Shown: positions 7,375 through 51,195, numbered from the stretch's first letter. The stretch is DNA of 64,000 nucleotides from a virus (IMGVR_UViG_2811995091_000080:1-64000); one strand, 5' to 3'. Notes: generated by a model from the sequence alone, not told the origin. Translations and numbers: made by a program.

Positions 7375-7697
7375 CACGTGCGGAAACGATAAGCTATCCG
7401 GTGCAGATTTGGATTGCAGGCGATCACGCAAAGGCGATCGAGACATGCCGCTCCTATTGTGATGAAATGGGGTTCTGCGTCACGGTTACGCCGACCACCT
7501 ACGTCTACACTGGCGGGCAAGAGGCGGGAGTCTGCATCGGGCTAATCAACTATGGGCGTTTTCCCTCCGAACCACGCTCGATCTTCAACCGCGCTCGCGA
7601 GATTGGCGATGTGCTTTTGAAGGCGCTGGGCAGAAATCATACACCATCCAAGCGCCAGACAGGACGCTTTGGATTAGCCATCGAGAGCGCCGCCTAA
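7371..7697 (+). CDS. Conserved phage hypothetical protein, C-terminus probably frameshifted
   Basis: CVTVTPTTYVYTGGQEAGVCIGLINYGRFP. A plausible C-terminus (KSYTIQAPDRTLWIS) lies in another frame. Confidence 0.6.
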   Translation: MTRAETISYPVQIWIAGDHAKAIETCRSYCDEMGFCVTVTPTTYVYTGGQEAGVCIGLINYGRFPSEPRSIFNRAREIGDVLLKALGRNHTPSKRQTGRFGLAIESAA

Positions 7698-8599
7698 TGG
7701 CTGAGGACATCATCAAGTATCAGGAGGGCCGAGAGGCAGCGATACGCGGGCGCAAGCTTCGGGTGCTGGATCTCTTCAGCGGCATAGGCGGCTTCTCCCT
7801 CGGCCTTGAACGCGCAACAATGGAAGGTGCTGAGTATGTCGGCTTCGAAACAACGGCGTTCTGCGAAATCGAAGAGTTCCCCCGCAAAGTCCTCGCCAAG
7901 CACTGGCCCGATGTGTCCTGCTACCGAGACGTGCGAGAGCTTACCGCAGAGCGACTTGCTGCCGATGGAATTGCCGTCGATGTCATCTGCGGAGGGTTCC
8001 CCTGCCAGGACCTATCGACGAGCGGAACGGGACTTGGCCTTGCTGGTGAGCGAAGCGGGTTATGGTCTGAGTTCAAGAGGCTCATTCGCGACATTCGACC
8101 AAGCTACGTTGTCTTGGAAAACAGCCCAGAGCTGCTTGATGGGTGGTTGGGAGACGTTGTCGGGCCGCTGGCCTCGTTCGGGTATGACGCGGAGTGGGAC
8201 TGCATACCAGCGAGCGCCGTTGGTGCCCCTCACCGCCGCGACCGCATCTGGCTTATTGCCTACCCCTCTGGCGGGGGACAATCGCAGTCGTGGGGATGTC
8301 TCAACACCGTGCATCCAGCGTCGGATGCGTATCGGGAAGCAGATCATGTTGTCGATGCTGTTCAAAGGCGCGCCCTGCCCTTCGTGTGTGGAAGGCATGA
8401 TGGGCTTCCCGGAGGGGTGGACCGCCTTAAAGCCCTCGGAAACGCAGTAGTGCCCCAAATTCCCGAGCTAATCGGACGGGCAATTCTAGCTGCGCAAAAC
8501 ACCACGATACGCGGGGATAAACGCGACGCACGCAAGCATTCTGACTGGCTGCAAGGCTATGATGCAGTCCGGCCCACCAGCACAGCGGGAAGGGAATAG
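7697..8599 (+). CDS. C5 cytosine DNA methyltransferase, alpha subunit (fused in-frame into a minigene)
   Basis: Motifs I (DLFSGIGG), IV (GGFPCQD), VI (ENS), VIII (HRRDR) and X (LGNAVVP) present. Motif IX absent. Confidence 0.93.
   Translation: MAEDIIKYQEGREAAIRGRKLRVLDLFSGIGGFSLGLERATMEGAEYVGFETTAFCEIEEFPRKVLAKHWPDVSCYRDVRELTAERLAADGIAVDVICGGFPCQDLSTSGTGLGLAGERSGLWSEFKRLIRDIRPSYVVLENSPELLDGWLGDVVGPLASFGYDAEWDCIPASAVGAPHRRDRIWLIAYPSGGGQSQSWGCLNTVHPASDAYREADHVVDAVQRRALPFVCGRHDGLPGGVDRLKALGNAVVPQIPELIGRAILAAQNTTIRGDKRDARKHSDWLQGYDAVRPTSTAGRE
7806..8450 (+). CDS. Nested +1-frame ORF, putative methyltransferase beta subunit carrying motif IX
   Basis: LLPTP and CVEGMMGFPEGWT. True start may be ATG 7965 or 7980. 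Same arrangement in B. Confidence 0.7.
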   Translation: MNAQQWKVLSMSASKQRRSAKSKSSPAKSSPSTGPMCPATETCESLPQSDLLPMELPSMSSAEGSPARTYRRAERDLALLVSEAGYGLSSRGSFATFDQATLSWKTAQSCLMGGWETLSGRWPRSGMTRSGTAYQRAPLVPLTAATASGLLPTPLAGDNRSRGDVSTPCIQRRMRIGKQIMLSMLFKGAPCPSCVEGMMGFPEGWTALKPSETQ

Positions 8600-49841: not shown

Positions 49842-49997
49842 ATGGTGAAGAGTTTGCTGATCGGCATTGGGATGGGCTTCGTCACCGGGACAGTCGGCCA
49901 TTGGTTCGGACTGAATACGGTCCAGACCTTGTGCCTGACTATTCCCGCATACCTCGCCGGGGTGTCGGTCATGTGGCCCCGCGGGAGCGCCGCCTAA
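49842..49997 (+). CDS. Small membrane protein
   Basis: Two hydrophobic segments, RBS GAGG. Confidence 0.5.
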   Translation: MVKSLLIGIGMGFVTGTVGHWFGLNTVQTLCLTIPAYLAGVSVMWPRGSAA

Positions 49998-50119
49998 TGG
50001 CTGAGGACATACTGAAATACCAAGCAGGCCGAGAGGCAGCAATACGCGGGGATAAGCGCGACGCACGCAAGCATTCTGACTGGTTGGAAGGCTATGATGC
50101 AGTGGCAGGAGATAGGTGA
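49997..50119 (+). CDS. 40-aa Rmf/CrpP-like minigene (uninterrupted allele)
   Basis: MAEDILKYQAGREAAIRGDKRDARKHSDWLEGYDAVAGDR. Its two halves flank the methyltransferase in A. Confidence 0.7.
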   Translation: MAEDILKYQAGREAAIRGDKRDARKHSDWLEGYDAVAGDR

Positions 50120-50862
50120 TGGAAGAAGTGCGCGCCTTGTCGATGTTTTCCGGGTGCGGCGCGCTAGATCTCGGTCTGGAGCGGGCAGGAATATCTGTCG
50201 TCGCGCAGTGCGAGATAGAGCCGCACGCAATCGGGGTGCTTGGAAGGCACTGGCCCGATACGCCGAACCTTGGGGACGTCCGAACGGCACCCTTTCACGA
50301 AGTCACAGCAGAAATGGTCGCTGCCGGCTTCCCTTGTCAGGATATAAGCAATGCAGGAAACCGCGCCGGAATTGAGGGTGAACGCAGCGGGCTTTGGTCC
50401 GAAGTCGTGCGAGCCATTAGCCTGGTACAGCCGCAGTGGGTCTTGCTGGAAAACGTGGCAGCACTGCTTAGTCGAGGATTGGGGAGGGTTCTCGGAGACT
50501 TGGCCGCGCTCGGGTTTGATGCTGTCTGGCATTGCATACCGGCTTCCCACGTTGGCGCGCCCCATAACCGCGACCGCATCTGGATCACGGCTGCTTCCCA
50601 CGCCCTCGGGGGTGAACGGTGGGCGAAACCATACTGTCGGACGCTTGGACGAATGGGGCGGGAGCAGCAATCCGTTCCGTGGGACCGAGATTGGCAAAGT
50701 GCGCTGTGCGAGCTTCGAGGAATGGATGATGGGTCTGCCTATCGGGTGGACCGAATTGATACCCTCCGAAACGCGGTTGTCCCGCAAATCGCGGAAACCA
50801 TCGGGCGGGCTATAATCGCGGCTAATCGCGCGATCTCCACTGACACAGCGGGAAGGGAATAG
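50116..50862 (+). CDS. C5 cytosine DNA methyltransferase, alpha subunit
   Basis: MFSGCGA, AGFPCQD, LENV, HNRDR, RNAVVP. Motif IX absent. Confidence 0.92.
   Translation: MMEEVRALSMFSGCGALDLGLERAGISVVAQCEIEPHAIGVLGRHWPDTPNLGDVRTAPFHEVTAEMVAAGFPCQDISNAGNRAGIEGERSGLWSEVVRAISLVQPQWVLLENVAALLSRGLGRVLGDLAALGFDAVWHCIPASHVGAPHNRDRIWITAASHALGGERWAKPYCRTLGRMGREQQSVPWDRDWQSALCELRGMDDGSAYRVDRIDTLRNAVVPQIAETIGRAIIAANRAISTDTAGRE
50351..50815 (+). CDS. Nested +1-frame ORF, putative beta subunit with motif IX
   Basis: LLPTP and FEEWMMGLPIGWT. Confidence 0.7.
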   Translation: MQETAPELRVNAAGFGPKSCEPLAWYSRSGSCWKTWQHCLVEDWGGFSETWPRSGLMLSGIAYRLPTLARPITATASGSRLLPTPSGVNGGRNHTVGRLDEWGGSSNPFRGTEIGKVRCASFEEWMMGLPIGWTELIPSETRLSRKSRKPSGGL

Positions 50863-50865
50863 ATC

Positions 50866-51195
50866 ATGGCAAAGCAAACGGTAATTGGGCGATGCCTACG
50901 GCCCGCGCTGGCACGGCTTCGCCGCTCGACCCGCTACGCGGTTCTCGGCCTAGCTGCCATCGCTATCGCGGGGTGTAGTGAGGTTGCCAAAGAAACTAAG
51001 GATGCAGTGGCGCTTGAGGACATGGGGGCAAAGGCGGCGTTTCGCGGTTTGGCGGAAGATGAGTGGCGCGCGGTGGTGGTTTTCAAAGACCCCGAGACTG
51101 GCTGCGAATACCTCATCAACGATGGCACCCGAGAGGGCGGCATGACCATTCGGATCGGCAGTGACGGTCGGCCTATCTGTTCGGAGGGGAAGTAA
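50866..51195 (+). CDS. DUF6440-like lipoprotein-like protein
   Basis: LAAIAIAGC, FKDPETGCEYL...GGMT motif. Confidence 0.6.
   Translation: MAKQTVIGRCLRPALARLRRSTRYAVLGLAAIAIAGCSEVAKETKDAVALEDMGAKAAFRGLAEDEWRAVVVFKDPETGCEYLINDGTREGGMTIRIGSDGRPICSEGK

Follow-up and report, generated by a model that had tools for sequence, protein, structure and literature searches.

The window analysed here is a stretch of 64,000 nucleotides with a G+C content of 60%, taken from an 83.5-kb IMG/VR virus contig that contains just two copies, A and B, of a methyltransferase gene with a second open frame inside it; the coordinates of both copies refer to the plus strand. In copy B, one open reading frame (ORF; 50116-50862, 248 aa) encodes alpha, the catalytic chain of a C5-cytosine DNA methyltransferase with motifs I, IV, VI, VIII and X. 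A second ORF, beta (50351-50815, 154 aa), is nested within it in the +1 frame and would comprise a small N-terminal sheet domain followed by a module for target recognition and motif IX. An O-like replication-initiation gene lies 5′ of copy B, and no restriction nuclease partner was seen near it, which points to an orphan enzyme in the early region. The gene directly 3′ of copy B (50866-51195) has a 109-aa product that matches phrog_11767 and phrog_8801, both of unknown function; a lipobox-like AIAGCS lies close to the N-terminus of this product.

The start-codon scan placed an AGGAG 7 nt 5′ of the ATG at 50119, and this ATG appears more likely to be the start of alpha than the GTG at 50116. 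Alpha matched PF00145 over residues 6-163 (E 7.5e-38; 131.2 bits against a gathering cut-off of 22), with only profile positions 2-164 of 324 covered, and phrog_363 with an E value of 1.4e-67. The catalytic motifs I (FxGxG), IV (PCQ), VI (ENV) and VIII (QxRxR-like) are all present, as FSGCG, PCQD (73), LENV (111) and HNRDRIW (150-156), and residues P73, C74, E112, N113 and R154 are invariant among 50 relatives. Motif X follows as RNAVVP (residues 218-223; 50767-50784), in which the N and P have identities of.92 and.90 and the wobble again falls at alpha position 3. The best Foldseek match of the AF2 model of alpha (pLDDT 85) was M.HhaI (2uyc; E 6.7e-16, rmsd 1.6, 168 columns), and a search of the PDB with the family profile aligned HhaI residues 12-177 (E 3e-39); the modelled fold is that of the M.HhaI/M.HaeIII large domain. 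Model confidence was high for residues 1-165 and 221-248 (pLDDT 88-98), including a helix at 223-247, and poor for residues 166-215 (50611-50760; pLDDT 41-64). The latter segment, with an alpha identity of.27, is kept free of stops, and its poor pLDDT gives it the appearance expected of a translated but unselected linker. Alpha therefore keeps motif X but does not carry motif IX and a target-recognition domain in the same chain; an IX-like conserved motif and a variable segment were found solely in the +1 frame.

This +1 frame is shut just 5′ of beta by a TAA at 50345-50347 and is open from 50348, so that the ATG at 50351 is its second codon; reading the sequence around this ATG, we noted a candidate ribosome-binding site, AGGA (50339-50342), 8 nt upstream. 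Beta contains, in order, CWKTWQHCL...WGGFSETWPRSGLMLSGIAY...LLPTP...EWMMGLPIGWT. It matched phrog_1008, which is labelled ‘DNA methyltransferase’ (E 4.3e-17), and no Pfam family, and 495 database proteins of similar length that match it are mostly ‘hypothetical’ and have no Pfam domain. No member of the beta family matched PF00145, a beta-family profile found nothing in the PDB, and the beta sequence itself found only a chance lectin there (E 1.3). When modelled alone, beta reached moderate confidence (pLDDT 67), and comparison of the model with 48,161 PDB chains gave no meaningful fold match (best Z 2.4). Within it, residues 21-70 (50411-50560; WKT.Q.CL...S.TWPRSG...G.AY.LP.L), which lie over alpha motifs VI-VIII, were modelled as four strands at pLDDT 74-87, as would be expected if a genuine small domain is encoded over these motifs. 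The LLPTP...EWMMGLPIGW module (residues 81-133; 50591-50749) is presumed to hold the target-recognition segment and motif IX.

Copy A has the same arrangement. Its alpha ORF (7697-8599, 300 aa) joins a methyltransferase core in frame with both halves of a small gene; it matches phrog_363 (E 2e-72) and is 45.6% identical to alpha of copy B by tblastn. The nested +1 ORF (7806-8450, open from 7788) matches phrog_1008 (E 5.4e-17) and contains, in order, SWKTAQSCL...WPRSGMTRSGTAY...LLPTP...EGMMGFPEGWT. No clear ribosome-binding site for it was found in the start-codon scan, in which the ATGs at 7965 and 7980 were candidate starts. The original prediction listed motifs that beta shares between the copies; LLPTP and EWMMGLP.GWT are indeed found in copy B, but copy B has CWKT rather than SWKT, and the form common to both copies is E.MMG.P.GWT. 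It also set the RNAVVP of motif X apart from GNAV, and here the residues were read correctly, but they are not unusual, as the first residue of the motif is G in 30 and R in 24 of 54 relatives.

The small gene that holds the copy A cassette in frame has 40 codons (MAEDIL...GYDAVAGDR) and is intact just 5′ of copy B (49997-50119). The copy A cassette is flanked by a 9-bp direct repeat, ATACGCGGG, at about 7742-7750 and 8506-8514, and copies A and B finish with an identical ACAGCGGGAAGGGAATAG. The shared small gene and end, together with the differing joins, suggest that two cassettes entered the same neighbourhood at different junctions.

Open frames in related phage loci

Taken singly, the open +1 frame of copy B is within chance. 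When synonymous codons were shuffled within alpha, 5.8 stops were expected in the +1 frame and five were observed, and the longest open run was 155 codons, against 109 on average in the shuffles (P about 0.12). We therefore turned to relatives, gathered as 64 phage records by tblastn with beta and as 64 loci fetched after an IMG/VR scan, a sample that is biased towards the B type since beta of copy B was the query. A search of genome contigs for related loci with alpha of copy B as the query returned nothing.

In each of the 69 loci considered, comprising the two window copies and 67 phage loci that were fetched, beta matched in the frame +1 relative to alpha. Across the loci the +1 frame runs for 147-389 codons without a stop, whereas the +2 frame is broken by 6-32 stops and its longest stop-free run spans 27-131 codons; the same pattern is seen in loci with a G+C content of 42-48%. 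In 54 non-redundant loci, 132 stops were found in the +1 frame against 287 expected, the minimum of 300 shuffles being 252. Thus, although copy B is insufficient alone, the family-wide pattern places the openness of the +1 frame beyond chance. The converse also held: in the segment where beta is constrained, the alpha frame had no stop in any of 48 loci, compared with about 127 expected from beta-synonymous shuffles (minimum 103), which indicates that alpha must be read through to motif X.

The position of the beta start varies among the relatives. In 19 of the 54, the beta ATG lies 4 nt past the alpha start, in the form (A/G)TGAATG, and one ribosome-binding site is common to both; the remaining relatives have an internal beta start, mostly 20-100 nt 5′ of the PCQ codons. 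The start in copy B is among the latest, 19 nt past the Pro codon of PCQ. Existing annotation tends to capture one frame of the pair. For Pseudomonas phage VB_PaD_phPA-G (L001), GenBank calls beta only (1249-1977, ‘hypothetical protein’) and omits alpha (1245-1964), and in Vibrio phage ZQ26 (L002) alpha only is called.

Several natural variants of the layout were also observed. In Arthrobacter phage Chubster (L068), the alpha ORF (273-1127) ends soon past motif VIII; a separately annotated +1 ORF, more than 400 codons long and extending from 1093 onward, continues in the downstream direction. Other variants join the N-terminal part of alpha, with motif I, in frame to beta, and the junction is not the same in all of them; these include two loci, L071 (1480-2355/1581-2411) and L074 (365-1264/517-1278), in which the rest of the alpha frame (PCQ...ENV...RxR...GNAVVP) is open as a separate ORF, and the proteins P0127, P0140, P0125, P0133, P0156, P0003, P0010 and P0022. 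A sequencing error can be discounted for P0127, since it is identical on seven contigs from several samples. Programmed frameshifting was considered for P0003, P0010, P0022, P0127, P0140 and P0156 and rejected: the junctions differ and the alpha remainder is open in L071 and L074, so that the fusions look like natural indel variants. They may represent another way of splitting the enzyme, or frameshift alleles.

Constraint in the two frames and the nature of the beta module

We measured conservation in both frames on a beta-guided codon alignment of 54 loci. Over motifs IV-VIII, the identity of alpha (.50) exceeded that of beta (.29), and the least conserved nucleotide was alpha position 3 (.68/.40/.58 for alpha positions 2/3/1). 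From LLPTP to GW the relation was reversed, with identities of.27 for alpha and.44 for beta and the least conservation at beta position 3 (.59/.56/.40 for beta positions 1/2/3). At motif X, alpha (.45) was again better conserved than beta (.28), and the wobble returned to alpha position 3 (.65/.39/.54 in the alpha order 2/3/1). The constraint along the gene therefore switches from alpha to beta and back to alpha, both in amino-acid identity and in wobble phase.

By column, conservation of beta was 50-93% in LLPTP and 69-100% in MG.P.GW, whereas the overlying alpha residues were mostly at 17-56%. Over MMG.P.GWT, the beta identities were.96/1.0/.32/1.0/.35/.69/.86 and those of alpha.64/1.0/.17/.40/.23/.36/.52. 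It had been proposed that this motif is conserved where the alpha residues are not, and for most columns this is so; however, the alpha family has a consensus of its own over the IX/X junction, DDG...RVDR...L(G/R)N, indicating that the junction is dual-coded and not constrained in beta only.

A second dual-coded stretch lies further upstream, over motifs VI-VIII, where conservation of the beta pattern S..S..W..Q..CL..S.TWPRSG..Y.LP.L is two- to four-fold higher than under a null in which the alpha protein and its codon usage are retained. About 25 beta positions within 50411-50560 stand far above this synonymous-shuffle null, although the null ignores shared ancestry, so that only the contrast between columns is to be trusted. 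WKT and the Gly of SG.AY equalled the null and can be regarded as by-products of the alpha ENV and Trp codons. Taken together, these patterns show that purifying selection acts on both frames, in segments that complement each other and in part coincide. Selection on the nested frame, as first put forward from copies A and B, is thus borne out by the +1 position in 69 of 69 loci, the beta wobble phase between motifs VIII and X and the residues above the alpha-constraint null; what does not carry over is the part of the argument that drew on WKT and the Gly of SG.AY, or on the open frame of copy B by itself.

Evidence on the nature of the beta C-terminus came from mycobacteriophage Estave1, whose gp75 (NC_026585, locus L069 669-1772) is a 367-aa single-chain relative. 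Like copy B, it matches PF00145 (E 2e-35) through alpha motifs I-VIII and contains the modules LLPTP, EWMMGWPAGW and GNGVVPQ, but alpha is the frame that encodes its recognition segment and motif IX, so that it has the look of a complete one-chain enzyme. The alpha frame of gp75 3′ of motif VIII reads LLPTPSAADGG..., ...FPEWMMGWPAGW..., GNGVVPQ, and the matches of this region to beta of copy B had E values of 2e-5 and 0.006 for the single comparison. The presence of the same modules in one frame in Estave1 indicates that the beta C-terminus is the counterpart of the region between motifs VIII and X, with the target-recognition segment and motif IX. In addition, the L.P-(6)-MG.P spacing of EWMMGLPIGW equals that of motif IX in M.HhaI. 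Pfam and PDB sequence searches did not recognise the motif IX region, even in Estave1, and the basis for assigning motif IX to beta is thus its pattern, its spacing and the likeness to Estave1; since Pfam is blind to the C-terminal motifs IX and X of Estave1 and of alpha in copy B, the absence of PF00145 from beta says little.

Beside its complete alpha, Estave1 has a nested +1 ORF (925-1299, 124 codons) over motifs IV-VIII. This ORF is 31% identical to beta of copy B over 124 columns (E 9e-12), and its motif IX is degenerate, suggesting that beta-like products may do more than supply motif IX. A profile of the beta module found 38,852 representative proteins at E values up to 0.001 and 14,937 at E values up to 1e-10. 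Ten long module-bearing proteins (388-660 aa) were considered as single-chain enzymes and rejected, as they have no Pfam domain; they are long beta chains.

The comparison of copies A and B follows the same division between the frames. In their motif IV-VIII segments, alpha is 53-61% identical and beta 24-44%, whereas over the columns aligned between RDRIW and NAVVP the identity is 62% for beta and 38% for alpha. The beta identity is confined to the ends of the segment, ATASG.LLPTP and E.MMG.P.GWT.L.PSE, and the middle of the module, after LLPTP, is unrelated between the copies, as had been noticed at the outset. The B-type module (PSGVNGGRNH..GRLDEWGGSSNPFRGTEIGKVRCASFEEW) recurs at 66-96% identity in 21 other phage loci, the alpha chains of which are only about 40-80% identical to alpha of copy B; the A-type module had no close match in the sample, which was gathered with beta of copy B as the query. 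It is plausible from these patterns, as originally proposed, that the variable beta segment sets target specificity, and copies A and B, with a common alpha core, common beta ends and unrelated recognition segments, offer a natural comparison in one record.

A two-polypeptide enzyme and alternative readings

We consider it probable, from the sequence patterns, the models and the likeness to a characterised enzyme, that copy B encodes a two-polypeptide orphan prophage C5-methyltransferase of the M.EcoHK31I kind. Alpha, translated from 50119 to 50862, would provide the large domain that binds AdoMet and carries out catalysis (motifs I-VIII) and, past an unconserved linker of about 50 residues, would add the motif X helix that packs back on this domain. 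Beta would be translated from the internal ATG at 50351 behind its own AGGA and would contribute the small sheet domain, the variable recognition segment from LLPTP onwards and motif IX (EWMMGLPIGW). By docking on alpha, beta would make the small domain whole and determine which sequence is methylated; the role of the enzyme may be to shield phage DNA from host restriction. Two separately translated chains fit best with an alpha frame that is kept open between motifs VIII and X, a beta frame that is open far upstream and the modelled alpha linker.

A first alternative is that the beta protein exists but has a task other than, or in addition to, that of a methyltransferase subunit; it would then be an overprinted protein acting, for example, in regulation or anti-defence. 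Estave1 retains a beta-like ORF even though its alpha has the recognition segment, motif IX and motif X in frame, and the N-terminal domain of beta has no known fold, both of which would suit such a protein. However, in copy B these elements are conserved only in the beta frame, alpha having neither a conserved recognition segment nor motif IX; in addition, the region that Estave1 encodes in frame is a homologue of the beta module, and M.EcoHK31I provides a precedent. We therefore regard this alternative as unlikely. A related but distinct proposal concerns the N-terminal part of beta (WKT.Q.CL...TWPRSG...AY.LP), which might be an overprinted folded domain that is kept even beside a complete single-chain methyltransferase. 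We put this forward tentatively, as the less probable case. If it were true, tens of thousands of phage methyltransferase genes would contain a second, functionally distinct protein, recognition modules could shift between the alpha and beta frames by paired frameshifts, and the motif I-beta fusions would be further states of the same system.

The order of the elements along the DNA is that of a single chain, which makes a double frameshift an obvious rival: one polypeptide would be produced by a programmed +1 shift past motif VIII and a −1 shift before motif X. The order of motifs I-VIII, recognition segment, IX and X, as well as the spacing between IX and X, matches that of a single-chain enzyme, Estave1 has the same order in one frame, and the constraint changes cleanly between the frames. 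Such a mechanism would nevertheless need neither a beta frame open 5′ of motif VIII nor an alpha frame open between VIII and X, and both are kept in every locus; moreover, beta residues 5′ of the supposed shift site are under selection. In copy B, where the switch points were read by eye in the sequence, there is no homopolymer or obvious slippery run, and M.EcoHK31I works as two separately expressed chains. On balance, a double frameshift is very unlikely.

Finally, that no beta protein is made and the open +1 frame is a by-product of the alpha motifs, high G+C content and codon bias, as the 60% G+C of the window, the non-significance of the copy B run on its own and the exact derivation of WKT and some Gly positions from the ENV and Trp codons might suggest, is highly improbable, since the layout persists at 42-48% G+C, the wobble is of the beta type between motifs VIII and X, LLPTP and MG.P are 79-100% conserved in beta where alpha is at 17-56%, and the B-type module is 66-96% identical in 21 phages with far more diverged alpha chains.

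The two-polypeptide reading has consequences for annotation. Pipelines that call one frame only lose either the catalytic or the recognition chain, and beta accumulates as thousands of ‘hypothetical proteins’. If beta sets specificity, the prediction of target motifs from the annotated alpha alone will fail. The locus is also a large and clean case in which a long stretch of DNA phage sequence codes in two frames of the same strand.

Relation to characterised two-chain methyltransferases

The vast majority of characterised C5-methyltransferases are monomers, the exceptions being M.AquI and M.EcoHK31I (PMC3404938). M.AquI (CYCGRG) is a two-subunit enzyme that is split in the variable region; its small subunit holds motifs IX and X, and the two genes overlap only at their ends (PMC3404938). 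Copy B is unlike this enzyme in that its motif X stays in alpha and its beta is fully nested, whereas Chubster resembles M.AquI and can be seen as an end-overlap version of the phage family.

M.EcoHK31I, from E. coli HK31 (YGGCCR; Lee, Kam and Shaw 1995), is the closer parallel. Its beta chain lies wholly within alpha in another frame; the recognition domain is found in alpha together with motifs I-VIII and X, beta contributes motif IX, and methylation needs both chains (PMC2836561, PMC3404938). The original prediction of an alpha/beta enzyme therefore matches a published architecture (PMC2836561, PMC3404938). By this published description, copy B shares with M.EcoHK31I the nesting of beta in alpha and the distribution of motifs I-VIII and X to alpha and IX to beta. 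Internal Met codons can start the beta chain of M.EcoHK31I, and its first 42 residues are dispensable (PMC2836561), which is in keeping with the variable beta starts among the phage loci. Two differences are apparent: the recognition domain of M.EcoHK31I has been placed in alpha, whereas in copy B alpha is unconserved between motifs VIII and X and the variable segment is in beta; and M.EcoHK31I is half of a restriction-modification pair, whereas copy B is an orphan prophage gene adjoining a replication-initiation gene.

In PHROGs, alpha (phrog_363) and beta (phrog_1008) are treated as two unrelated families, both labelled ‘DNA methyltransferase’, and the labels give no hint that they represent two frames of one stretch of DNA. 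Our literature search found no description of a phage-wide alpha/beta family, which is weak evidence of absence. The two-frame layout, known in principle since 1995 from M.EcoHK31I and proven for that one E. coli enzyme, is widespread and rarely annotated in phages, and copy B is another member.
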